A DNA stretch of 64,000 bases, from contig NC_081331.1 in NCBI RefSeq assembly GCF_022539665.2, forward strand, positions 5,642,001 to 5,706,000, read 5' to 3'. The translations under genes were made by a program, and so were the position numbers. The stretch comes from Daphnia carinata (lineage: Eukaryota). Shown piece by piece: positions 848 through 58,790 of this stretch. A model generated the notes under the pieces. The model worked only from the letters and a program-made list of their open reading frames with translations. It had not been told where the DNA came from and ran no database searches. Each line of letters starts with the position of its first letter. Position 1 is the first letter of the stretch.

Positions 848-911
848 ATTAGCAGTAAAAGAGAAACAAGACCAACATTTTTAAATTTTTTTTTGGGTAA
901 AATGGATTGCC
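848..911 (-). mobile_element. Isolated right terminus of the GGCAATCC-TIR transposon family
   Basis: Ends ...GGGTAAAATGGATTGCC followed by AT (912-913); approximate reverse complement of 980-1045. No partner left end seen in the window. Confidence 0.7.
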
Positions 912-979
912 ATATACTCGAGCTATTGTTGCCTCTGCCGTCATTTTGTGCTGCCTAAGTTCATAAAATATCATTTTAT

Positions 980-1140
980 GGCAATCCGTTTTACCCAAAA
1001 TAAAAATAAAAAATATTGGCCTTTTGTTTCCTATTTACTGCTATCGCCATCTACCGGACATATTTCTAGTTAATTCTCTACGTACACTGACCGAAAACAA
1101 TTTTATGCCCGACTTTTCTCGGTCGGGGTTTTAAAAAAAT
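980..1140 (+). mobile_element. Left end of a GGCAATCC-TIR MITE, interrupted by the foldback element
   Basis: AT|GGCAATCCGTTTTACCC at 978-996; 990-1140 is an approximate reverse complement of ~6203-6337 and a direct copy of ~5902-6020. Confidence 0.7.
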
Positions 1141-1336
1141 GGCAATCCGTTTTACATTAAAAAAAAAGAAATGTCGGAAAAAAAAATCGCACTTTTTTCT
1201 TTTTTCCGACACGTAGCCATCTACCGCTGAGAATCGTTATTACTGGCGTAGGCAATTTCAGTCCATTGGATGCCATTCGCAGTTAGTTCAGTAGCGTGGA
1301 TGGAGAAAAACGCGTGGCTGGAGGAACAATTGAAAA

Positions 1337-2304
1337 ATGGATAAGATAATACAACAAAAGGATGGTAAGTATAAACATTATTATAGTGGTTTTCAATTAT
1401 TAATTATTGTTTATTAGATCAAATTATGAAGCTGCAGGCCCAATTATTGGAACAACACAAAATATTAGATACTGGTTGATCGGCCTATCTAGGAACAAAC
1501 ATTTTCCTTTTTCCCATTCAGGCTGTGAGACAAATTTGATTGTTTGTTATAACTACAACAACATTCCCTGCATAACGAAGGGAATGTTTACATTTTCTTT
1601 AGTGAACTTTTCCCTGAACTGTTGCCTGAAGTTAAAAATGTTTTGGAATATTTGGTTGGAGTTACGCTGATAATATTCAGTTGCAGTAATTGGATCTTGT
1701 CCTCTTTCTTGAGCAGCGTTTTGCCTTTTCAGCCATCGAAGAGGTGCTCAAAGATTATTAATTTTCTATCAATGACTGTCATTTGCCAAACATGTCTTCT
1801 TAAATAATTTGGTAATTGATTGATGGTTTCTAGATCATGAGTTTATTAAACAAAATATAATGGCCCCTAAAGATGTTTCATTTCGTTGGCATTGCAGCGA
1901 TGAACATCATACGTGGACTTTTTAGGTATGAAAGGAATTTTCTTGAAAATTTTTTGAATTTATGACAAAGCATTTCTCCTGCTTTTTGCCAACCATGTCT
2001 AATCTAAAAAAAAAATTTATCCAATAGGAAAGGATTTTCAGCATACTGGGAACACAACTATCAACAATGCAACATTCTAGGGGTGCTATTTTATCATTCA
2101 AGAGCCTTATACAATGATTTTCATCTGCAATTTGTATGGCCTTTCCCAAGCTTCTGCCAGAAGTTGAATCTATAAGGCATGTAAGTCACATGAGCAACAA
2201 TTGAAATGCTTAATGGTGTTGGTTTTCTTTTCTCAGCATAGGTTAATAGTAACATTGGATCTGAAAAGATTCTTGGTTGGGGCAAGACACTGAATAAATT
2301 GTAA
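1337..2304 (+). pseudogene. Decayed spliced gene in left arm of foldback copy 1 (internally deleted or replaced)
   Basis: ATG 1337 MDKIIQQKD|GTAAGT intron|DQIMKLQAQLLEQHKIL; resumes near 1858 and ends ...FPKLLPEVESIRH|intron|VNSNIGSEKILGWGKTLNKL*. Contains in-frame stops. Confidence 0.5.
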
Positions 2305-3054
2305 TGATTGAATGGATGACATGACATTTCTATACTTCATTCGGATTCCCGAGACGGTATTTTATATTTAAAAAATTGAAGTGCATATCTGGGCTCCCTT
2401 CCTTTCCGTAGCCCCGTTTCCCCTTGACTCGTAATAAGCCCGTAGGGGGTCATGCCCCTACTGTACGGTATATATAAAAACAACATATACCGAGGTTTGG
2501 AGGGCTCTGGCCGGAAAGGGGACGTGGGGGTCCGCTTAGTCCGATGATGTGTTCACGGAGGGCGACGTGGCTACCCACAAATCCGAACTAAAGGTTAATC
2601 GCTCCTGTAAAAATGTTCCAAATCTTCAGCTCTTCTTCCGGCTTCTCTTAGCCAATCACCGGGTAATCTCCCCGGTGGGTCAACAAGGCAGTGTCTCCCC
2701 CTGCCTGGGTTGACGGCAACTTTTGAAAGGGCTATTATGCCTTTTTAAAGTTGCAAAAATAATTGTAATGTGCAGAGAATTGTCAATAAAATTTTTTTTA
2801 TAAAATATTTTATCCAAAATTTGTTTCTTTCATTGTATGTTTTAGCCGTGTTCACACATTACATTTATCAACTTTTTTTTTTCTGCGCATTATTTGTTTT
2901 TGTCAACATTGATGGTAAGCATTGTTTCCATTGGTTTATCGTTTATCTGTAAGTATTCAATTATTATTTATTACACTCTTTGAATTTTTCCACTTAGATT
3001 CAAGGAACAACATGTAATATCTGGATATTTTTTAAAGTAATTTTGTACTTTGTT

Positions 3055-3127
3055 TTACCCGTATGGGAACCGATCCCCAGACATTCAGCGTGCAACGCCG
3101 ATGCTCTAACATTGAGCCACGAGATAT
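3055..3127 (-). pseudogene. tRNA-like unit 1 in foldback spacer (TGC at anticodon position)
   Basis: Minus strand GTG-GCTC-AATGTTA-GAGC-A-TCGGC-GTTGCAC-GCTGA-ATGTC-TGGGGATCGGTTCCCA: D arm and anticodon arm pair; T loop and acceptor stem are degenerate. Confidence 0.6.
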
Positions 3128-3222
3128 ATCTAAATATTTTATTATCGCATATTATATGTTATCGTCTAGGATGTTTATGCAGTCTTTCACAACTATATGT
3201 TTATCTTTCTATTTCTTTCATA

Positions 3223-3294
3223 AGGTTCATAGCTCTGTGGTAGAGCCTTCAGTTGCGATACCTGTTACCCTGGGATCAAACCTCAGTAGATGTG
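3223..3294 (+). pseudogene. tRNA-like unit 2 in foldback spacer (tRNA-Cys-like 5' half)
   Basis: CATAGCTCTGTGGTAGAGC...CTGGGATCAAAC; the copy-2 version reads TAGCTCTGTGGTAGAGCATTCAGCTGCA, close to the metazoan tRNA-Cys(GCA) 5' half. Anticodon stem is broken. Confidence 0.55.
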
Positions 3295-3410
3295 TAAAAA
3301 ATGAAGTACAATAAATGTAGAAGAGTATATTGCAGAATTGCATTTCCTTTTTATTCTAAGTGTAAATGCAAGTCCACAAGTAACTAGAAAAAAGCCAACT
3401 TGACATCATA

Positions 3411-3481
3411 TGATTCATGGCTCATTGGTAGAGCATCGGCGCGGTATGCCGAACATCCAGGGTTCGATCCCTGTATAATAA
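3411..3481 (+). pseudogene. tRNA-like unit 3 in foldback spacer with good Pol III A and B boxes
   Basis: TG-GCTC-ATTGGTA-GAGC-A-TCGGC-GCGGTAT-GCCGA-ACATC-CAGGG-TTCGAT-CCCTG: D, anticodon and T stems pair; A box TGGCTCATTGG, B box GGTTCGATCC; weak acceptor stem and no U33. Confidence 0.65.
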
Positions 3482-4135
3482 TAGAATACTAACATATAAA
3501 TGATAAACCAATGGAAACAATGCTTACCATCAAAGTTGACAAAAACAAATAATGCGAAGAAAAAAAAAAAGTTGATAAATGTAATGTGTGAACACGGCTA
3601 ACACATACAATGAAAGAAACAAATTTTGCAAAAAATATTTTATAAAAAAATTTTTATTGACAATTCTCTGCACATTACAATTATTTTTGCAACTTTAAAA
3701 AGGCATAATAGCCCTTTCAAAAGTTGCCGTCAACCCAGGCAGGGGGAGACACTGCCTTGTTGACCCACCGGGGAGATTACCCGGTGATTGGCTAAGAGAA
3801 GCCGGAAGAAAAGCTGAAGATTTGGAACATTTTTACAGGAGCGATTAACCTTTAGTTCGGATTTGTGGGTAGCCACGTCGCCCTCCGTGAACACATCATC
3901 GGACTAAGCGGACTTCCACGTCCCCTTTCCGGCCAGAGCCCTCCAAACCTCGGTATATGTTGTTTTTATATATACCGTACAGTAGGGGCATGACCCCCTA
4001 CGGGCTTATTATGAGTCAAGGGGAAACGGGGCTTCAGAAAAGAAGGGAGCCCAGATATGCACTTCAATTTTTTAAATATCAAATACCGTCTGGGGAATCC
4101 GAATTAAGTATAGAAATGTCATGTCATCCATCCAA

Positions 4136-5534
4136 TCAATACAATTTATTCAGTGTCTTGCCCCAACCAAGAATCTTTTCAGATCCAATGTTACTATTAA
4201 CCTATATTGAGAAAAGAAAAACAACACTGTTAAACATATCAATTGTTGATCATGTAACTTACATGACTCATAGATTCAACTTCTGGTGGAAGCTTGGGAA
4301 AGGACATACAAATTGCAGATTAACATCATTGTATAAGGTTCTTGAATGATAAACTAGCACCTGTAGAACGTTGCATTGTTGATAGTTGTGTTCCCAGTAC
4401 ATGAAAATCCTTGCCTATTGGATAAATTTTTTTTTGGTTGATTAGACCTGGTTGGCAAAAAGGAGGAGAAATTCTTCGTCATAAATTTAAAATTATTTGA
4501 AGAAAAATCCTTTCATACCTAAAGAGTCCATGTATGATGTTCATCTCTGCAATGGCAGCAAAATTAAAACATCTTTAAGGCCATTTAAGTACCCAATTTC
4601 CCCAACACTCTGAACATAAAGGACAAGTTGTTCTTTAGACAGAGAAGCAGAATTATTTGAGGCTTCTAGCTGTGACAGAACTATAAAGGATTGCTGTTGT
4701 ACTGGATTCATTAACACAAGATGGTACTTCTCATTAGGCAATTTGCATTACTCTATTAATTTACCTCACACCTTAACGGTAATGCACTCTCAGTGTTTTT
4801 TCATCTGTAGGCTCACTCTTCCATCCTGTAACACTTCCAGACTTGACTTGATCCCCCCGCTAAAATTCTGTGAATGCAAAATAATAGCATTAAAAATACT
4901 TTTTCGATAGACAAAGAACGGGGAAGTACCTAATCCATGTTTTAGGTTGAACTCATGCCATTTCTGTGTTTCCATACCACACCCATTTTCCGCCCAAATA
5001 CAGTACCACAATTCTTCAGTTCCTTCGCTGCATGGACTTATTACTAACAATTCTTTTAGTGCAGCACTAACAGAATTTAAATTTAACACACTGTCAGGTG
5101 GTGGACTGAATAACTAAACAATAAATAATTGTTTGTTAAAATTCTATACTTATTTGGAATTCTTATTTGGAAAGTTTAGGCACCTGACTGTGTTCACCTA
5201 ATGCCAACTCATCCTCACGTTCAGTTAGGGATGAGTTTTGAAAAACCTCCTTCACTGTTTGGAAACTGTTTTGTTCCAATTTCTTCTTTTCCCCTAGCTG
5301 AGCTTGTAGACTCAAAAATTTGAGCTACAAAACACGAATGAATAAAAGCAAATAAATAGAATCATTACGTATTAGGCCTACCATCCTTAGCTTCGTTGTT
5401 ATCTAATATTTTGTGTTGTTCCAATAACTGGGCCTGCAGCTTCATTATTTGATCTAATAAACAATAATTAATAATTGAAAACCAATATAATAATGTTTAT
5501 ACTTACCACTTTTTTGTTTTATTATCTTATCCAT
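4136..5534 (-). pseudogene. Decayed spliced gene in right arm of foldback copy 1
   Basis: Reverse-strand copy of the arm gene with ATG at 5534 and the same GT-AG intron positions; ORF-track fragments 4790-5089 and 4541-4741 are parts of it. Confidence 0.55.
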
Positions 5535-5901
5535 TTTTCAATTGCTCCTCCAGCCACGCAGTTTTCTCCAGCCACGCTGCTCAATTGAATGCTAATGGCA
5601 TACAATTAACTGAAATTGCATACATACTTGTAATAACGAAACCGACGGGTAGATGGCTACGGGTGGAAAAAAGAGAAAAAAGTGTGATTTTTTTTTTTTC
5701 CGCCATTTTTTTTTTTTTTCCATGTAAAACGGATTGCCATATCTATTGGTAAAGTACTCAGTTTTACTTCACTGAACGGCTCACGATGTTCAAGAAATTA
5801 GGGGCTTGAAAATAAGACCGACAAAATAAATAAGCCCGATTTTTCCCAAACAAAAGTTGGCGCGCCAGTACGGTACAGCGCGCTTGTAGAAAACAGCGTA
5901 T

Positions 5902-6490
5902 TGTATTCCGTTTTACCCCCCCCCCAAATATCGGCCTTTTTCTGTTCACTGCTATCACCATCTCCCGGTCAGATTTCTAGTTAATTCTTTATGTACAGTC
6001 AACCAAACAACCGAACAATTTTTCTGCTGCTTGGCGCTAGCTCTGTCGCGTACTGGTGCGCTAGATTGCCCCAAATATTTGGTGTATTTCAAAAACGATT
6101 AACTTTATGAAAAAATAGCAATTTTCCCCGAATCAGCATTCAGCTTTGCGTGTATCCTGTGATATTCAACCAATTCCTGTGAGTGGCAGTTTTTGCCGAA
6201 AAATTTTTTAAGCCCGACCGGGAAAAGTCGGGCTTAAAATTTTTTCGGTCAGTGAGTAGAAAATTGACTAGGAATGTGACCGGTAGATGGCAATAGCAGC
6301 CAAACAGAAAAAAAGGCCTTTTACTTTTATTTTGGGCATAGTCTTCTATAATAAACGGCCAGTAAGGAAAGTGGTGCTCGATTTGGGGTATTACGCCCTT
6401 CTGGCAATTTTAGTTTTAGGCGCAGGGGGTATTGCGCGCTTACTGGGCGTTTATTATAGTAGGCCATGATTTTGGGTTAAAAGGATTGCC
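5902..6490. mobile_element. MITE of the GGCAATCC-TIR family
   Basis: Degenerate left end AT|TGTATTCCGTTTTACCC; right end GGGTTAAAAGGATTGCC|AT (6491-6492); subterminal inverted segments ~5925-6020 and ~6240-6320. The right end could instead pair with the left end at 980. Confidence 0.6.
6340..6465. mobile_element. 126 bp mini-MITE nested in a MITE end
   Basis: AT|AGTCTTCTATAATAAACGGCCAGTAAG ... CTTACTGGGCGTTTATTATAGTAGGCC|AT: 27 bp imperfect TIRs with AT on both sides. Confidence 0.75.
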
Positions 6491-6526
6491 ATATTGCCAT
6501 ATGTACTCTTGTTTTTGGTTAACGAT

Positions 6527-7206
6527 ATGGATGCAGTTACACTCAATGAGCGATGCCTGGAAGATGACTACTATTACACATTAGGTTGCGATGATTCCTC
6601 CAGTGTGAGTTTCTGTCAGATTTGTGTTGTTTGTTCTTTTTTTTTAATTTTTCATATTCACTTCATACATGAATAGGTTGACCAAATATTAACTGAATAC
6701 AAACACAGAGTATTACTTTGTCATCCTGATAAGAATCCATATGATAAGTCCACTGCTCAGTTTCAAAAACTTCAGGTAAATAGATTCTGCACATTAACCA
6801 AGTAATGTGATAGATACAGTTAATTTCTGGTCATTCCAACAGGAAGCTAAGGAGGTGCTCTGTGACCCAGAAAAGCGAAATGATTATGACAGATGGAAAA
6901 CAAGTGGAATAACAATTTCATACAAGCAATGGATTGTCATAAATAAACAATCTGCTGCCGTAAGTATTACGTGTGCAATATCAGGATGTCATTCTATGTA
7001 GGTTTAAAGTAAAATAGATTGAAGTAATAAAATTAACACAGGTTCTTCACTGGGCCATACCAAAACATGAACAAAAAATGCTACAATCAAGCAGTAGCAA
7101 GTCAGAGATAATAAAACTGAAACAAAGCAAGCTTTCACTTAAAATTGGTTCTCAATATTGTACGTACAATTCCATCCTAGAAAAGTTTAGGAACTATGAA
7201 ATATGA
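6527..7206 (+). CDS. DNAJC12: J-domain co-chaperone, DNAJC12/JDP1-like
   Basis: Exons 6527-6604, 6677-6775, 6843-6959, 7042-7206 join in frame; J domain DYYYTLGC...CHPDKNP...FQKLQEAKEVL..PEKR..YD and the C-terminal KFRNYEI typical of DNAJC12. Confidence 0.92.
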
Positions 7207-48059: not shown

Positions 48060-48385
48060 AAATGGTCGAAAAAGTCGGGGTTATTTTGTCGGGCTTAATT
48101 TTGAGCATGGCGGAAATTCAGTCTTGTAATTTTGACATTAAATTTGGTTTAAATTAACCTAAAATAAAATGCTGATATCAGGAAAAATTTTTGCTTTCTC
48201 GTCCAACCAGATGTTTTTATAATAAATGGAATTAATGCGCTACTGGTGCGCCGGCATTTATGACCCGTTTCATCCGTTTATTTAAAAATTTATAAGCACT
48301 ACGTGAAAGCAAACTTCATTTCTGTGAATCTCGACGAATTCCAACAAATTTAAATTTTGGCCAAAATTGAAAAAGTGGGAAGGCT
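48060..48385. mobile_element. Right part of a MITE ending ...AAAAGTGGGAAGGCT
   Basis: Terminus at 48385 followed by AT; shares GTCGGG and TACTGGTGCGC motifs with 5760-6250. Left end not identified. Confidence 0.45.
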
Positions 48386-48387
48386 AT

Positions 48388-48925
48388 AGCCTTCCCACTT
48401 TTGTCAAAATCGGTCAAAAACGAAATCTCTTGGAATTCGACGAAACTCACACAGTATAATAAAACTGAACGCAGATTTCAATTCAGCTATTACTTTTTTC
48501 CCTAACCCAGCCGTTTTGAAAATAAAAGAAAACAAAGTGCTGTTAGCGACACTTTTTTTGCGCCGTAGCGTACTAGCGCGCTAACGTTATCAATTATTCG
48601 GTGTTTTTCAAAAACGATTGACTTAATGGAAAAAAGAACAAGTTTATCGAAATCAACATTCAATTTTAAGTATATCCTGTGATTTTCATCCAATTCCAAT
48701 AAGTGTCAATTTTTTTATGTATAAATTTTAAGCCCGACAAAATAAGCCCGACAAAATAAGCCCGACAAAATAAGCCCGACTTGTGTTTTTGACGTATAAT
48801 GTTAAAACTATAAGACCTATTGAAAAATAACCTTGATTTCCGTGGCAAGCATTCGATTCTGAAACGGAATCATGTACTTTTAATCAAATTTCAATTTTGG
48901 CCAAAAATGAAAAAATGAGAAGGCT
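48388..48925. mobile_element. 538 bp MITE with AGCCTT...AAGGCT termini
   Basis: AT|AGCCTTCCCACTTTTGTCAAAATCGGTCAAAA ... TTTTGGCCAAAAATGAAAAAATGAGAAGGCT|AT; internal 48560-48700 resembles 6036-6200. Confidence 0.7.
48729..48780 (+). repeat. 14 bp tandem repeat (TAAGCCCGACAAAA) x3.7
   Basis: Exact tandem copies; the core recurs singly at ~5832, ~6210 and ~48088 (reverse). Confidence 0.9.
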
Positions 48926-49155
48926 ATTATGGCAATCCGTTTTATATGGCAATTCGTTTTACACCAAAAAAAAAAAAAGTTCGCCAAAAAAAAAAAAAAA
49001 AATCACACTTTTTTCTTTTTTTTCCGACACGTAGCCATCTACCGCTCAGACTCGTTATTACTGGCGTAGGCAATTTCAGTCCATTGGATGCCATTCGCAG
49101 TTAGTTCAGTAGCGTGGATGGAGAATAACGCGTGGTTGGAGGAACAATTGAAAAA

Positions 49156-50552
49156 TTGATAAGATAATACAACAAAAGATGGTAAGTATAAACATTATTA
49201 TATTGGTTTTCAATAATTAGTTATTGTTTATTAGATCAAATTATGAAGCTGCAGGCCCAATTATTAGAACAACACAAAATATTAGAGAACAGCAAAGCTA
49301 AGGATGGTAAGGCCTAATACGTAATGATTCTATTTATTTGCTTTTATTCATTCGTGTTTTGTAGCTCAAATTTTGAGTCTACAAGCTCAGCTAGGGGAAA
49401 AAAACAAATTGGAACGGAACTGTTCCCAAAACAGTGAAGGAGGTTTTTCAAAACTCATCCCTAACTGAACATGAGGATGAATTGGCATTAGGCGAACACA
49501 GCCAGGTACCTAAACTTTTCAAATAAGAATTCAAAATAAGTATATAATTTTAACAAACAATTATTTATTGTTTAGTTATTCAGTCTACCACCTGACAGTG
49601 TGTTGAAGTTAAATTCTGTTAGTGCTGCACTAAAAGAATTGTTAGTAATAAGTTCATGCAGCGAAGGAAGTGAACAATTGTGGGACCGTATTTGGGCTGA
49701 AAATGGGTGTGGTAAGGAAATCCAGAAATAGCACGAGTTCAACATAAAACATGAATTAGGTACTTTTCGGTTTTTTGTCTATCAAAAAAGTATTTTTAAT
49801 GCTATTATTTTGCATTCACAGAATTTTAGTGGGGGATCAAGTCAAGTCTGGAAGTGTTACAGGATGGAAGAGTGAGCCTACAGTTGAAAAACACTGAAAG
49901 TGCATTACCATTAAGGTATGAGGTAAAGTAATAGAGTATGCAAATTGTCTAATGAGAAGTACCATCTTGTGTGAATGAATCCTGTGTAACAGCAATCCTT
50001 TATAGTTCTGTCACAGCTAGAAGCCTCAAATAATTCTGCTTCTCTTGCTAAAGAACAACTTGTCCTTTATGTTCACAGTGTTGGTGAAGCTGGGTACTTA
50101 AATGGCCCTAAAGATGTTTTAATGTTGCTGCTGTTGCAGAGATGAACATCATACATGGACTCTTTAGGTATGAAAAGAATTTTCTTCAAAATTTTTTGAA
50201 TTTATGATGACGAAGCTTTTCTCTTCCTTTTTGCCAACCAGGTGTAATCTACAAAAAAAAAAAAATTTTATCCAATAGGAAAGGAATTTCAGCATACTGG
50301 GAACACAACTATCAACAATGCAACATTCTAGGGGTGCTATTTTATCATTCAAGAGCCTTATACAATGATTTTCATCTGCAATTTGTATGGCCTTTCCCAA
50401 GCTTCTGCTAGAAGTTGAATCTATAAGTCATGTAAGTCACATGAGCAACAATTGAGATGCTTAATGGTGTTTTTCTTTTCTCATTGTAGGTTAATAGTAA
50501 CATTGGATCTGAAAAAATTCTTGGTTGGGGCATGACACTGAATAAATTGTAA
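49156..50552 (+). pseudogene. Decayed spliced gene in left arm of foldback copy 2 (most complete version)
   Basis: GT-AG introns at 49182-49234, 49307-49364, 49506-49575, 49760-49821, 50432-50489 (53-70 bp) separate coding-like segments; ATG mutated to TTG; several stops and frameshifts. Confidence 0.6.
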
Positions 50553-51224
50553 TGATTGAATGGATGACATGACATTTCTATACTTCATTCGGATTCCCGA
50601 GACGGTATTTTATATTTAAAAAATTGAAGTGCATATCTGGGCTCCCTTCCTTTCCGTAGCCCCGTTTCCCCTTGACTCGTAATAAGCCCGTAGGGGGTCA
50701 TGCCCCTACTGTACGGTATATATAAAAACAACATATACCGAGGTTTGGAGGGCTCTGGCCGGAAAGGGGACGTGGATGTCCGCTTAGTCCGATGATGTGT
50801 TCACGGAGGGCTCTGTGGCTACCCACAAATCCGAACTAAAGGTTAATCGCTCCTGTAAAAATGTTCCAAATCTTCAGCTCTTCTTCCGGCTTCTCTTAGC
50901 CAATCACCGGGTAATCTCCCCGGTGGGTCAACAAGGCAGTGTCTCCCCCTGCCTGGGTTGACGGCAACTTTTGAAAGGGCTATTGTGCCTTTTTAAAGTT
51001 GCAAAAATAATTGTAATATGCAGAGAATTGTCAATAAATTTTTTTTTTTTAAAATATTTTTTGCAAAATTTGTCTCTTTCATTGTCTGTGTTCGCTGTGT
51101 TCACACATTACATATATCGCCTTTTTTTTTAATTAGCTTGCTCAATTCACCTATATTGTTTTATGCCAGCTTTGTTGGTAACCATTGTTTCCATTAGTTT
51201 ATCGTTTATCTGTAGGCATTCAAT

Positions 51225-51647
51225 TATTATCCAGGGATCGAACGCTGGATGTTCGGCATACCGCGCCGATGCTCTACCAATGAGCCATGAATCATATGAT
51301 GTGAAGTTGGCTTTTTTCTAGTCACTTGCGGACTTGCATTTACACTTTGAATAAAACTGAAATGCATTACTGCAATATTCTTTTCTCCATTTAGATATAG
51401 ATCTTTATACATCTAGTAAGTTTTGAACCCAGGGTAACAGTTATTGCAGCTGAATGCTCTACCACAGAGCTATGGACCTTACGAAAGCAATAGAAAGATA
51501 AACATATAGTTGTGAAAGACTGCAGAAACATCCTAGACGATAACATATGATATGCGCTAATAAAAATTTTAAATATATCTCGTGGCTCAATGTTAGAGCA
51601 TCGGCGTTGCACGCTGAATGTCTAGGGATCGATTCCCATGCCAGTAA
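51225..51647. pseudogene. Three tRNA-like units in the copy-2 spacer
   Basis: Unit 3 at ~51225-51294 (-), unit 2 at ~51409-51479 (-), unit 1 at ~51576-51647 (+); homologous to 3411-3481, 3223-3294 and 3055-3127. Confidence 0.6.
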
Positions 51648-52387
51648 AACAACATATAAATACAAAATAACTTCAGAAAATATCCAGGTATTACACGTTG
51701 TTCCTTGTCTAAGTTCAAGAATTCAAAAAGTGTAATAATAATAATTGAATACTTACAGATAAACGATACAACGGTGGCAAAAACAATAAAGATGAATTGA
51801 GCAAGCTAAATAAAAAAAAATTGGTAATTGTAATGTGTGAACAAAGCGAACACAGACAATGAAAGAGACAAATTTTGCAAAAAATATTTTATAAAAAAAA
51901 ATTTATTGACAATTCTCTGCATATTACAATTATTTTTGCAACTTTAAAAAGGCACAATAGCCCTTTCAAAAGTTGCCGTCAACCCAGGCAGGGGGAGACA
52001 CTGCCTTGTTGACCCACCGGGGAGATTACCCGGTGATTGGCTAAGAGAAGCCGGAAGAAGAGCTGAAGATTTGGAACATTTTTACAGGAGCGATTAACCT
52101 TTAGTTCGGATTTGTGGGTAGCCACAGAGCCCTCCGTGAACACATCATCGGACTAAGCGGACATCCACGTCCCCTTTCCGGCCAGAGCCCTCCAAACCTC
52201 GGTATATGTTGTTTTTATATATACCGTACAGTAGGGGCATGACCCCCTACGGGCTTATTACGAGTCAAGGGGAAACGGGGCTACGGAAAGGAAGGGAGCC
52301 CAGATATGCACTTCAATTTTTTTAATATAAAATACCGTCTCGGGAATCCGAATGAAGTATAGAAATGTCATGTCATCCATTCAATCA

Positions 52388-53571
52388 TTACAATTTATTC
52401 AGTGTCATGCCCCAACCAAGAATTTTTTCAGATCCAATGTTACTATTAACCTACAATGAGAAAAGAAAAACACCATTAAGCATCTCAATTGTTGCTCATG
52501 TGACTTACATGACTTATAGATTCAACTTCTAGCAGAAGCTTGGGAAAGGCCATACAAATTGCAGATGAAAATCATTGTATAAGGCTCTTGAATGATAAAA
52601 TAGCACCCCTAGAATGTTGCATTGTTGATAGTTGTGTTCCCAGTATGCTGAAATTCCTTTCCTATTGGATAAAATTTTTTTTTTGTAGATTACACCTGGT
52701 TGGCAAAAAGGAGGAGAAAAGCTTCATCATAAATTCAAAAAATTTTCAAGAAAATTCCTTTCATACCTAAAGAGTCCATGTATGATGTTCATCTCTGCAA
52801 CAGCAGCAACATTAAAACATCTTTAGGGCCATTTAAGTACCCAGCTTCACCAACACTCTGAACGTAAAGGACAAGTTGTTCTTTAGCAAGAGAAGCAGAA
52901 TTATTTGAGGCTTCTAGCTGTGACAGAACTATAAAGGATTGCTGTTACACAGTATTCATTCACACAAGATGGTACTTCTCATTAGACAATTTGCATACTC
53001 TATTACTTTACCTCATACCTTAATGGTAATGCACTTTCAGTGTTTTTCAACTGTAGGCTCACTCTTCCATCCTGTAACACTTCCAGACTTGACTTGATCC
53101 CCCACTAAAATTCTGTGAATGCAAAATAATAGCATTAAAAATACTTTTTCGATAGACAAAAAACCGAAAAGTACCTAATTCATGTTTTATGTTGAACTCG
53201 TGCTATTTCTGGGTTTCCGTACCACACCCATTTTCAGCCCAAATACGGTCCCACAGTTGTTCACTTCCTTCGCCGCATGGACTTATTACTAACAATTCTT
53301 TTAGTGCAGCACTAACAGAATTTAACTTCAACACACTGTCAGGTGGTAGACTGAATAACTAAACAATAAATAATTGTTTGTTAAAATTCTATACTTATTT
53401 TGAATTCTTATTTGAAAAGTGTAGGTACCTGACTGTGTTCACCTAATGCCAATTCATCCTCATGTTCAGTTAGGGATGAGTTTGGAAAAACCTCCTTCAC
53501 TGTTTGGAAAGTGCCCTGTTCTAATTTGTTTTTTTCCCAGTAACTACTTAATTGTAGACTCAAAATTTGAG
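52388..53571 (-). pseudogene. Decayed arm gene in right arm of copy 2, first two exons deleted
   Basis: Near-exact reverse complement of 49365-50552. Confidence 0.55.
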
Positions 53572-54039
53572 CTAAAAAACACAAATGAGAAAAAAAAGAA
53601 AAAATTGTGATTTTTTTTTTTTGGGGGGGGGGGTAAAACGGATTGCCATAGTATTTAACAGTATTAAGCGTCGAATAAAAAATCAGTACCAACTTTCTAT
53701 CAAGAATTTTTACTGCAGACGATCCCCCAAACACTATAGCCACCTATTGGTACGATATTCAGTTTTCTGCATTGGGTTTCAGCGATCGTCCGGGGCAAGA
53801 CTAAGGGCTGTAGCAACTTTCACTTCTAATAATTCAAATGCCATAAGGTTCACGTGTAAAAGATATCAATTTTCGTAATCCTTGCTTAATTTAGCTTAAA
53901 ATACATTATTCCGATTTGAAATTGAACGCTGATCACGAATATCGGCTTTGTTTTGACATTGGGCATAACAAAACGGAGAAAAACGAAGAAAATGACCGTG
54001 GAAAAATTGCCTCAAAAACCGTCAAAAATTGACCATCGT

Positions 54040-54450
54040 TGGAATTGCTTGAAAATGCCAGAATATACTCAAAATCGAATACTGATTTCGAGAAAATTGC
54101 TATTTTTTTTCATAACATCAACAGTTTTGGAAAAACACCGAATTAAAATACGACTGGCGCGCCAGTACGCTACAGCGCTAGCATGACACATCAAAGTTAT
54201 TCAATTCGATATATTTCCAAAACGATGATCTAATAAGCAATAATAAATAATTTAAAACCAATATAATAATCTTTATACTTACATCCTTATCTTTTATTAT
54301 CTTATCCATTTTTAAATATTTTTCTCCAGCCACGCGTTTTTCTCCAGCCACGCTACTCAACTCACTGCCATTGGGATCCAATGGACTCAAATTGCCTACA
54401 TGCCTGTAATAACGAGTCTGACCGGTAGATGGCTACGGTCGAAAAAAAAA
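54040..54450 (-). mobile_element. Diverged fragments of the same transposon families
   Basis: 54050-54182 resembles the reverse complement of 6036-6190; 54225-54450 is a diverged reverse copy of the foldback subterminal region including the MDKIIKDKD exon. Confidence 0.65.
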
Positions 54451-54871
54451 GAATTTATATATTTTTAACTAAGTCTCAAATTTAGCCAAAATGAGACAAT
54501 AATTAGTAGGCATAAATGTGAAGAGATTGGGGGCTTCTTTTAATCTTTACCTTAATTCATATAGAAGCCTTTTCCCTAACCTGGTAACATAAAGGTGAAG
54601 CAAAACTTTTTTCCCTACCAATCAACAGAACAATATCATTGATCAAATTCAATTGATGGAATTGATGAAGCAACACGTCAATGAAAGTTTATCACCGTTT
54701 CGGTTTATTATTGAAATTGCACAAAGAGAACTGAATTCTTTTGGAAGTCCGACATCGCCACTGTGATGAATACACGGTTGCTTTCTTCAGGTAAAACAAT
54801 TATACCCCCCAATTTTATGGTAAACGTGAAATTCTGAATCGCTTGTGAAGTTCTAGTTTTAACATACTTCT

Positions 54872-57800
54872 TTAGTCCGGTGGTATATTAGAAGAAGTTG
54901 CGTCGTCATTATGTGACGTGTTTTCTTTGTTGATACCCATTCTTTTCAAAAACGATTTGGCCCAGTTAGTTGTTAATTTAACAGGGCCACCAAATTCTGG
55001 TAAAAGAGATGGCTCTTTTTGGAGGAGAACCTTAGTATAAAAAGACATATTGATCAGAAGCAGAATCACAAGCAACGGTAATCTGTGAAAGTACCTGGCG
55101 GGCAGTAGCCATAGCGACAAACGCGTTGACACGTTCTCCGGAGCGTTTGAGTTCCCGAATGCATTCCTGAACGGCTTCGTCGTGCGGTCCTAGACGGAGT
55201 GGTCTTCCGCGGGGAAGTACGTTCAGGTTGGTGATTTGTTCTTCGGAAGTCCTCTGCTGTGCAACGTATTTGTCTCGCAATCCTCGGACTGTGCTCTCAG
55301 GAATTTCGTGGCCTACTCTTTCCTTAAAAAGTGAAAACAATCAACTTACGAAGTGCGTACTCAGAAGAAATTCTTTTACGTACTTTGAAATAATCTGCTG
55401 CTTCTTGACATCCATACTCGGCTGCAAAGCGTCCAATTTCTAAACGAAATTGTGGAGGGTACGTCGCATAGCTACCTCGACCATTTTTTTTTGACGTTTT
55501 AGTTTTCTGAGCTGGCATCTCATGTCGAACGGATGTTTGAACAGCGGGATTTAATTCAAGCGGTGGAGGAGGAGGAGGAACAATCGCTGGGGAAGGAGTT
55601 CTAGGAACAGGAAGGCAAGTGGACGTGGGAGGATTTTCCGAAGGATGGTGAACTATGGACGCTGAAACGTCAGAACACTCTTCATTCCAGTTCCTTGAAT
55701 ACGCTGGTAGCTGGACAGAGCTAAAAGATGGCTGATATTGGGGAGGTGGTGGCAAAGAACTGTAGGACGGATAAGGGGGGACTGGCTGGGACATCACATG
55801 GTACATGTTCTGGTGTTGGTTATGGTAGTTGTTTGCTGACTGATGACCGACATACATGTGTGTGTTGGTGTAGTGCCCATAAGGTTGGTGATAGTAACCA
55901 GCGTCCGGATGTTGCTGAAGAACTGGTAAAGAGGAAGGAGGGGCGACCGATGAAGGTGGTGAAGGGGGAGGAGGTGGAGGATGCATAGATGATGCTGACG
56001 AAAGCTTACGACGAAGCTCTGATGCTGGGGTCCCAAATATTTTTTTGAATTTCCGCACCGTGCTTTCTTTTACAGAGAATTGCAATTTGTCACTGAAATG
56101 CTGCACAGCTGCTGGTACTCCATGTACAGCCGCATATTTTCCAATTTCTTCTCGGACTGAGGCGCAAAATAGATGGCGTGCGAGTGATATCGATTTCCGT
56201 GATCCACTGAAAATGTACACCCCAATGAAAACAAGTTTTAACAGAAAAACTAAGTAGTTACCTATGATCAAGTTGATTGGCTGGAGTCATACGGAGATAC
56301 ATACGACGAAACTTTCTTATTAAGGAGATGCTGATCGTTTTTTCCAACTTAGTTGAATAAAGCTTTTGGGTAGCGTCAAGCCCACATTCTGCAGCATGGC
56401 GTCCAATTTCTGCCTTAAGTTGAGAACTGAATGCATGGTGGGCCTGAACGAAATTCCTAACACTGCTGTAGCTCACCGGGAAACCTGATTATTGTTAAAT
56501 GTGCAGCAAAGCGTAATGATTTTACACGAAGGATGCCCAACATACTACCTAGAGAGGTACTGAAAGTGCGTGCGGCATTGTGAGTACCATGACGCATGGC
56601 ATGTATTGCGATTGCTTCCTTCATTTCAGGAGTGTAGCGGTGATATTCACCCCGCTTATGACCTTCATTTCTTGATTTGCGCACATCCTTTGTTTGGGCG
56701 ATTAAAGCTCTAACGGCGGCTACGGCAGTCGAAGTAGACGTTCTGTTGTCCAAAGATGGGTTTGCGGATGTATCATCTGTTTCATGGAGCGTGCTCCCAG
56801 CGCCCAACATCCGATGTTTTAAGTTAGACCTCCGCGTCAATCGGTTTTCACTAGATGATGTTTCGTCACATGGGGGACAATCGAACAATTTCGATTTTTT
56901 CCGTGTTTTTGGGAATAGATTTCCGGCATCGCTTGTTTTCGTAAAACAGCGTTTGGATATGGTGTCCAACGCCGAAGTGTTTTTGACAATCTCGTTCCTT
57001 AACTGGAAATTGAACAAATAGTTGCAATCATTTCCTCCTAACATTATGAAGTCTACAACATTACCTTCCATAACCAACCGAGTATCGTTGGTCGTTTGTG
57101 CCAATCATTAGGATGTTCCGCTAGATACGTGTCTATTCTTGTTTTAATATTGGCATCAAACTCAGCAGATTCCTTCTCCGAGAATTTTAAGTGGGTTTCC
57201 GCATTTAGAACAGTAGCTGTTTCTGTCGCAGAAATCAGCTTGGTGAACCTTAGTGATAATTAATCAGTCAATCAACTATCCTTTACTTTTACTGATAATC
57301 ATAGTATCTTACTCTCCTTTGAGTTCCATGAATTCAAATGAATTCAATCCATACACTGTGCATATAGCTACACCATAGCTGCACAAATTTTCAAACAAGA
57401 ATTCAGCCATGTCATAAGAACTAGGTTTGATTGCTGCTACTGAAATCCAAAAGGATACTGGATCATAAAGTATCAACAGCAAGAACTTCTCTTGAGAAGA
57501 TTGATTTGGTTTGATTTGATGAAATTCAATTTCAGTCCAAGGAGACGTAACTTTGTTTGGTTTCACAAGGTGAAGAGTTGTTGTGGAATTTGACTTACAC
57601 ACCATACAATTTTGGACATATTCGGTTATGCTTTTATAAGAGTATCTCCAAAAATGTGTTTGCTGTAACATCCTGTGCATTTTTTTAACTCCATTGTGAA
57701 AGCCTAAGATTATAAGCATGTTAAGCACTCCTTTATGTATCCTATTCACACTTACCTTTAGTTCCATCAACATGAATCTGTTCTAAAATTGAAGCTTTAG

Positions 57801-58080
57801 CATTCTTATCGAGTACAACTTTTCGAGGTTTGCGCCTACCATAGTACAATTCTCCATTTTTCAGCTTCAAAGAATTAGCATAAGAATTATGAAATAACAA
57901 CTGTATATGAGATGCAAAAAAAACACAATAGCATACGAAATAATTTGCGGCTTGTGTTCTGATCCATTGGGCTTTTGTGCTGGTATTGATGTTCACCCCA
58001 GTTGGATCTTCAAGATAACGAAGAATTTCTACATAATACTTTTCGTTGTCTAATTCGTGGTCATCATTAAAACACGCCAT
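54872..58080 (-). CDS. Chimeric protein: degenerate Gypsy/Ginger-like integrase plus four transposase-type HTH repeats (~904 aa)
   Basis: Exons 57937-58080, 57756-57864, 57313-57703, 57065-57248, 56549-57002, 56262-56484, 55384-56206, 55095-55322, 54872-55030 total 2715 nt in frame. H2C2 motif IHVDGTKGFHNG...FW...YVQNCMVC; repeats of the type YPPQFRLEIGRFAAEYG.....F.......ESTVR. Confidence 0.8.
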
Positions 58081-58790
58081 TGTTTGTACGTAATATCATT
58101 TTAAACACAACGCTCAGTAACGCAAATGTTCCAAACAGACAGACGAATTTCCCGACAGGGACTCTCTTTCCTGTCAACAGTTTTATCGTTCACCAGACAT
58201 AGGGATCCGGTTCTCATTTACTGTAATCGGGGTTCCCACCTCACGGTTTTCGAAAAAAAAGCTACTCGGGTACGATTAAGTAACTTTTTTGTCAAAGTGG
58301 GGCAGGAAGTAGGATAGCCCTAAAGGTTGACCATCGTGCCATGTACCCCTGAATTCATTTTAGAAGATCAAAATCAAGTTTGTTGATACATTAATAAAGT
58401 TCTACCCAGTTGAGATTTCATCCCCGATTACCTGTAATCTACCGCACCGGTCTGCCTGAAAAAGTATTAATCGTTTACAACCCGGGTAGATTTGTTTCAA
58501 GCGATTCAGTTCGGTGTAAGTGGTCAAAGGAAGTAGTCACCTTTAAAAATGGCGGCTTAAGTGGCGCCAAATTATTTAAAAAAAAAAAAAAATTAGCGTG
58601 ATTTGCCTACCAACGAAATTGAGCCCTGATAAGTCAAGCGGCGTCAAGTTATTGGATTGACCAAACAGGACCCTTTTGCCCGTAACGGGTCCGCATATAC
58701 TTCACTTGTTTCTTGGCTGGAAGTCAAATGGGCACCTTTACATTGTACCCTCGTATTTTAGATGCAAAAAGCATTTACCTACAATGCTAG

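Follow-up and report, generated by a model that had tools for sequence, protein, structure and literature searches.

A 64,000-bp stretch of Daphnia carinata contig NC_081331.1 (the window) contains two copies of a large palindromic element that is probably a non-autonomous foldback of the IS3EU/GingerRoot type. The element would have formed by inverted duplication of one transposon end and would be moved in trans; its arms are copied from each other, and its internal modules are predicted to block convergent transcripts before they enter the central loop. We infer the superfamily, the mobilization in trans and the origin by end duplication. Foldbacks and IS3EU elements are already known, and what is new here is a duplicated spliced gene together with constrained non-coding modules. 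An initial annotation of this DNA missed the copying between arms, and likewise that the conserved parts are the non-coding modules and not the open reading frame (ORF).

Palindrome geometry and arm-to-arm copying

Copy 1 occupies positions 1138–5741, has no assigned strand and ends in AATGG..CCATA. Self-BLAST pairs 1139–1471 with 5400–5740 at 87% identity and 1859–2967 with 3475–4585 at 94% (93.6%). The left outer arm (1138–1471, plus strand), also mapped by tblastn with the arm-gene protein P0001, comprises the terminus, a poly-A/poly-T subterminal region with a GCCATCTACC motif and exons 1–2 of the arm gene. The left inner arm (1859–2967, plus strand) comprises a remnant of exons 6–8, the GC block, a poly(A) signal and an AT-rich tail, and the right outer arm (5400–5741, minus strand; self-BLAST and end scan) terminates in CCATA. 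A foreign 387-bp segment (1472–1858, plus strand) stands in for exons 3–6 of the left arm; it has no other match in the window, is unrelated to 4586–5399 and stands where the right arm has 814 bp. In total, ~2,896 of the 4,604 bp of copy 1 (~63%) are paired.

Copy 2 (48945–53650, no assigned strand), delimited by self-BLAST and end scan, lies 43 kb from copy 1 and is inverted relative to it. It is the better palindrome, with ~3,891 of 4,706 bp (83%) paired and arms that are 97.9% identical, and its right arm lacks ~330 bp just inside the end. The loop is likewise 507 bp long and matches that of copy 1 at 450 of 500 positions. Homology between the copies stops at the termini (self-BLAST, 1859–5742 against 52833–48944), and an extra 17-bp end adjoins copy 2 at 48928–48944. 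A third, partial arm (54226–54453, minus strand; self-BLAST) contains the subterminal region, exon 1 and intron 1 and runs into a different terminus near 54515. The arms are not internally repetitive: self-BLAST detects a single ~85-bp repeat, at 67–69% identity.

The initial annotation described almost the whole 4.6 kb as one inverted repeat. A large inverted repeat around a 507-bp loop is indeed present, and self-BLAST, in answer to the self dot-plot proposed there, resolves it in copy 1 into two paired blocks, so that the description is too generous by the unpaired fractions given above. The reported second copy with the same loop 43 kb away is confirmed. The modular design is borne out by the spliced gene, the GC hairpin block (z −3.3) and the tRNA-like pieces, and the statement that no transposase is recognizable agrees with our finding no transposase family in the arms or scanned flanks.

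With the loop used for orientation, the left arm of copy 1 corresponds to the right arm of copy 2. Among 27 informative sites, 26 group the arms by element, one groups them by side and none supports the third grouping. Independent evolution would give grouping by side, and the pattern therefore indicates that the arms have been copied from each other after or during duplication. Arms within each element are 94–98% alike, and the 97.9% identity between the arms of copy 2 exceeds the 93.1% between same-side arms of the two copies. The mechanism we infer is gene conversion or template switching. In copy 1, 31 changes are private to the outer right arm, so exchange with other copies is also likely. 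Arm-to-arm conversion also keeps the arms of sex-chromosome palindromes more alike within a palindrome than between relatives; those palindromes differ in being host structures, much larger and not bounded by transposon ends.

The foreign segment of copy 1 is flanked by a short CAAAATAT repeat and contains a 29-bp hairpin at 1560–1588. It encodes the peptide FPELLPEV, which resembles FPKLLPEV of exon 7, and it may derive from a paralogous gene.

The arm gene and the conserved non-coding modules

Each arm carries a spliced gene that is read inward from the element end and has seven predicted introns. In the right arm of copy 1 (4138–5534, minus strand) it has eight predicted exons, and its 143-residue ORF, which stops in exon 5, has a frameshift in exon 3. 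Contigs of run X1, as tabulated, join across six of the seven predicted introns, and they also span introns of the DnaJ gene next door. With exon 4 as query, phmmer returned five hits from the full library, two of them real (P0001 and P0005); P0002–P0004 were dropped as bacterial repeat proteins matched by chance. P0001 is a 143-residue D. carinata protein, represented by three sequences in five accessions on three contigs, and tblastn shows it to be exons 1–5 spliced together. P0005, from D. magna, is 51% identical over 59 residues to the exon-4 domain. The rest of P0005 resembles the helix-turn-helix parts of clusters that are linked to rva_4 integrase-core proteins (ESM Atlas features 0.96 and 0.92; structure TM 0.63 and 0.52).

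The P0001 sequence gives few further clues. Its AlphaFold model has a mean pLDDT of 59.9, with one confident N-terminal helix (residues 2–60), and has no Foldseek match. Sequence searches of the PDB and of Pfam returned nothing, and the ESM Atlas returned only GCR1_C (0.76), which is below the bar. None of 597 metagenomic candidates was confirmed, and candidate sets of 163, 387 and 754 contained no homologue of greater length, which is weak evidence. Kolobok-like motifs in exons 6–7, seen by eye and without any database hit, were rejected. The ORF is broken in all four arms by frameshifts, a lost start, a stop, a deletion or a replacement, and in exon 4 of same-side arms 12 codons differ with an amino acid change against three that differ silently. 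The arm ORF is decaying and drifting.

Conservation lies instead in a 373-nt hairpin block and in two outward-facing tRNA-like units, which are three to five times more conserved than their surroundings. The left block of copy 1 (2382–2754, plus strand, the sense of the arm transcript; fold z −3.27) differs from copy 2 at six of 373 positions, compared with 33 of 599 around it. The right block (3689–4061, minus strand) differs at 10 of 373, compared with 123 of 1599 around it (p = 2e-4). The block is 50% GC, its sense-strand fold is better than those of all 100 shuffles, and a predicted poly(A) signal, AATAAA, follows 30 nt past it (2785–2790, plus strand, with a mirror at about 3653–3658, minus strand). 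In run X3, from another organism, the block occurs in many contigs at ~90% identity, with varied flanks and internal deletions. All six transitions at paired sites of the sense fold in these X3 variants are C-to-U changes opposite G, which leave G-U pairs (p = 0.03), and 13 of 14 variants break pairs in the antisense fold. These patterns suggest, on modest evidence, that the block functions as RNA in the direction of the transcript, and the block is a candidate new structured RNA.

Rfam contains no match to the block at E up to 10. A hammerhead or HDV-like ribozyme was rejected, with no candidate in a rough pattern scan, as were other Rfam RNAs. The block hairpin pattern has no match in viral contigs, and the pattern of terminus plus subterminal region has none in metagenomes. 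Run X2 is a wetland metagenome that yielded short pieces only, and X4 yielded almost nothing. Contig depths (X1 low over the loop, X3 near-absent over the arm exons) cannot rank the parts of the element and are not used as evidence.

The loop (2968–3474, no assigned strand) contains an older, decayed inverted repeat (~2975–3167 against 3181–3381, 67%) that is significant in copy 1 (score 72.5 vs a shuffle maximum of 53) and not in copy 2. Three tRNA-like units are present. Unit A (3055–3126, minus strand) faces the left arm and scores 22.6 bits with the Rfam tRNA model, below the gathering threshold. Unit C (3411–3481, plus strand) faces the right arm, contains A- and B-box-like motifs and scores 37.1 bits, above the threshold, with its acceptor stem unpaired in both the Rfam alignment and the fold. 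Unit B (3225–3290, plus strand) is degenerate and matches unit C at 55 of 79 positions (score 51, shuffle maximum 30.5). ARAGORN detects no tRNA. Between copies, unit A differs at two of 64 positions and unit C at one of 64; together they show three differences in 128 positions vs 47 in 372 for the remainder of the loop (p about 2–3e-4). Unit B, with nine differences in 64, is not conserved.

The similarity between units A and C is only about 71%, and copying between arms therefore cannot account for their conservation. An eroded inner repeat and three tRNA-like units would follow from a palindrome that formerly extended to the centre and decays wherever copying does not succeed. Downstream of units A and C, the first T4 runs lie beside AATAAA at mirror-image positions. 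One X1 contig covers 3123–3298. The heads of tRNA-derived short interspersed elements (SINEs) and tRNA-gene barriers are comparable in keeping A/B-box-like motifs and the D, anticodon and T arms while losing the acceptor stem. The units described here differ in standing back to back at a centre of symmetry, without a recognized SINE tail. In X3, a tRNA-like head (contigs on 3408–3453) is common to at least 37 contigs that run on into another shared sequence, and is possibly a SINE family of that second organism; two single X3 contigs join the tRNA-like head to the GC block.

Termini and the choice between explanations

Eight ends in the window lie within two mismatches of the 18-bp terminus of the TATGGCAATCCG ends, compared with none in each of five base shuffles. 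Seven of the eight begin with TATGG, the exception being the left end of copy 1 (AATGG), and TATGG..CCATA is found at both ends of copy 2 and at one end of copy 1. Fungal IS3EU elements have TAYGG..CCRTA ends and 6-bp target-site duplications (PMC12730594), and complete IS3EU families, which group with GingerRoot, are bounded by TA..TA (PMC10045372, PMC6839031). IS3EU elements have been little studied (PMC11934779).

The initial annotation placed terminal inverted repeats flanked by AT at the boundaries and proposed a possibly undescribed family. The repeats are bounded by defined ends, as claimed. The AT is likely to lie inside the terminus rather than in the flank, because the ends read TATGG..CCATA like published IS3EU termini; an undescribed family with AT flanks is not supported as stated. 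The immediate flanks do differ, as was also claimed, although both consist of related end fragments nested together, their termini swapped, and at neither copy do the left and right flanks make up two halves of a single sequence. For these reasons the original sites appear to be lost, and no 4–8-bp target duplication was found at either copy. Between the two copies the flanks are only 61–80% alike, and part of this similarity runs in an orientation that a larger duplication would not produce. Breakage and rearrangement are promoted by long spaced inverted repeats (PMC2775673), a property that the rearranged flanks fit. The proposal that the palindrome moves as a unit stands in so far as the unit, loop included, is duplicated with boundaries at the termini; movement itself is read from these boundaries only, with no target duplication surviving.

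Several observations weigh against the IS3EU/GingerRoot assignment and the proposed role of the modules. The 6-bp duplication of the target site is absent at both copies (at best four of six positions match among 15 end pairs), and the element is therefore not filed as a proven IS3EU member. No integrase-like DDE transposase was found in the arms or scanned flanks, where no autonomous partner was seen. IS3EU elements account for 0.00% of the D. magna and 0.05% of the D. pulex assembly (PMC8594854). The comparison of elements is restricted to the two full copies in the 64-kb window. P0005 has no match in a Pfam scan and is a single gene model that may be a chimera of neighbouring fragments; rva_4 is taken to be the IS3EU transposase family. 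Run X1 is listed as ‘DNA?’ and is likely to be RNA, because its contigs span introns of the arm gene and of the DnaJ gene. In the block, four of 10 X3 variants at sense-paired sites break the pair, none of the X3 variants is a double compensatory change, and pairs are kept as often as the substitution types predict; conservation of the block could stem from conversion among copies instead of selection. Finally, AT stands outside GG at all eight ends, and both copies fit a perfect AT duplication.

This last observation fits, letter for letter as well, a non-autonomous element of the PHIS/ISL2EU type, with GG..CC ends, a 2-bp AT target duplication and a preference for insertion into TATA. ISL2EU elements, which are present in Daphnia, combine a 2-bp AT duplication with RR..YY ends. 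Their coding remnants would be expected to be DDE_Tnp_4/THAP or YqaJ/Myb; a Pfam scan of three arms, each in its three sense frames, yielded no family, ISL2EU/PHIS-type remnants included, at E up to 5. Duplications of 0, 2 or 3 bp are made by Harbinger-related elements (PMC12730594). We nevertheless consider this origin unlikely: the T preceding AT at seven of the eight ends completes the exact IS3EU pentamer, the sole transposase-like link, an indirect one, leads to rva_4-type proteins, and the rearranged flanks would have lost a longer duplication anyway.

Three further explanations concern what the palindrome does or how it arose. Mu killer of maize, an inverted duplication of a DNA transposon end including gene sequence, reportedly acts via hairpin RNA from a single locus. 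A silencer or small-RNA source of this type, whose read-through hairpin RNA silences the parent transposon family, would suit arms kept 94–98% alike, a gene start at each end and pairing over 1.1–1.9 kb in a read-through RNA. It is a distinctly unlikely role, given the poly(A) signal before the loop in each arm, the conserved outward-facing tRNA-like units and the intact spliced family RNA in X1, and the present element differs from Mu killer in being multi-copy and in carrying signals predicted to stop read-through. The palindrome might instead not be a mobile unit at all: local fold-back repair among nested transposon ends, whose product was later duplicated a single time by ectopic recombination, would account for the missing target duplication, the position of both copies among related ends with swapped termini and the chimeric left arm of copy 1. 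Such an origin is improbable, since on either side the copies cease to match at the termini, with flanks only 61–80% alike and partly in the wrong orientation, and the gene family lies on at least three D. carinata contigs. Fold-back reads can make false palindromes, as is generally known; here the arms differ by 2–6% and by large indels, and both arm–loop junctions recur in a second copy that is 10% divergent, so that a chimeric-read or assembly artefact is excluded for practical purposes.

The IS3EU/GingerRoot explanation, which we hold to be the probable one, would proceed as follows. One end of an IS3EU-type element, together with an accessory spliced gene, would have been duplicated in inverted orientation to give two equivalent ends and no transposase, and a transposase encoded elsewhere would move the product in trans. 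Foldbacks are thought to have arisen in several superfamilies by such end duplication (PMC4079207). The 67% palindrome within the loop would be the oldest stratum of this event. Both arms would be transcribed convergently to give the same sense RNA, and the transcripts of units A and C would head outward and terminate at the T runs beside AATAAA. Together, the block, AATAAA and the tRNA-like units would stop RNA polymerase II (Pol II) before the centre. A barrier role for the tRNA-like units on its own is tentative. We regard as unlikely the more elaborate possibility of an IS3EU giant-palindrome family with a non-coding payload, in which a ~370-nt structured RNA and back-to-back tRNA-like Pol III units would insulate the centre and avoid hairpin double-stranded RNA (dsRNA), with arms renewed by copying.

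The predicted stop before the centre runs contrary to the ~2 kb of dsRNA envisaged in the initial annotation. The arms could pair if read through, but this requires passage of AATAAA and the loop, and in copy 1 pairing would extend over only ~1.1 kb plus 0.33 kb. Convergent transcripts are likely to stop at AATAAA before the loop, and dsRNA of 2 kb is therefore not the default product. The cruciform suggested there is unlikely in duplex DNA across a 507-bp spacer; a hairpin in single-stranded DNA is plausible.

Related foldbacks, neighbouring ends and genomic setting

The element resembles described IS3EU/GingerRoot elements in its TA..TA termini (here TATGG..CCATA), a size of 4–13 kb, passenger or accessory genes and many copies with unpaired or broken ends (PMC10045372, PMC12730594, PMC6839031, PMC10853768). 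It differs in having a 1.4–1.9-kb gene-bearing arm, where the published inverted repeats span 30–150 bp, and in lacking the 6-bp duplication and a transposase. With the Galileo, Tetris and FB foldbacks (PMC2775673, PMC4079207) it shares long inverted arms (theirs to 1.2–1.7 kb), a short middle and a non-autonomous nature; these have arisen separately in several superfamilies as the transposase was lost and the arms lengthened, and they too show signs of homogenization. They are P- or Mutator-related, with 7–10-bp duplications and internally repetitive non-coding arms, whereas here a spliced gene that has a structured 3′ block makes up the arms and tRNA-like units occupy the middle. The element thus has the long inverted arms, short spacer and missing transposase of the foldback structural class, without its internally repetitive arms. 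No account of palindromic IS3EU elements or of Daphnia foldbacks was found in a literature search that had most subscription journals and Repbase Reports outside its scope.

Instability and silencing are the expected fate of long inverted repeats that are transcribed, and here a dispersed family keeps them in gene-dense DNA beside promoters. The family offers many natural replicates for measuring arm-to-arm conversion, and allows the tRNA-like units to be tested as a shield of the palindrome from dsRNA surveillance. Should the barrier idea fail, the element remains a tidy new foldback of a known superfamily.

The end scan and flank comparison identify several related short elements around copy 1. 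A truncated one with the same terminus abuts copy 1 (977–1137, plus strand), a further TATGG end belongs to another (897–914, minus strand; end scan), and a third, with no assigned strand, has a degenerate left and a good right end (5899–6493). Clean insertion of copy 1 into a short element spanning 977–6493 was rejected on flank comparison, as was a larger segmental duplication. Matches of X3 and X4 contigs near 5690–5720 are poly-T and were rejected as evidence of shared ends.

At 48323–48451, 48885–48945 and 850–1043, related elements meet at their ends, either head to head or directly abutting, with no duplication; the ends involved include a second type, TATAGCCTTC. Abutted-end junctions are formed by circles of the bacterial IS3 family (PMC2909936), and by analogy the abutting ends might hint at how IS3EU elements move. 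Termini are also swapped: an arm-type subterminal region is attached to an end of the second type, and the converse arrangement occurs too (54226–54515, 784–914). All six occurrences of the CCATCTACC motif in the window (1047, 1217, 5648, 6282, 49035 and 54424) lie 50–230 bp inside element ends. The motif, which resembles a CTCF core, is likely to be bound by the transposase or by a host factor.

Genes lie densely in the window, a eukaryotic stretch whose introns are short; the end of a papain-family exon is near 400, and the start of a DnaJ gene is at ~6527. The relatives nearest to the arm gene are gene models of D. carinata and D. magna, as fits a likely Daphnia host. The nest of elements around copy 1 begins shortly after the papain-family gene (231–407) and ends 34 bp before the predicted DnaJ start (6493–6527), and it therefore occupies a host promoter region. 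Within the related short element next to the DnaJ start is nested a 132-bp element (6337–6468) whose inverted ends read CATRG and whose 8-bp duplication (ATTTTGGG) is exact; by its ends and duplication it is presumably hAT-like. The gene adjoining copy 2 (54872–58095, minus strand) looks transposon-derived, with an integrase zinc-binding (H2C2) domain and repeated short segments that resemble helix-turn-helix motifs.

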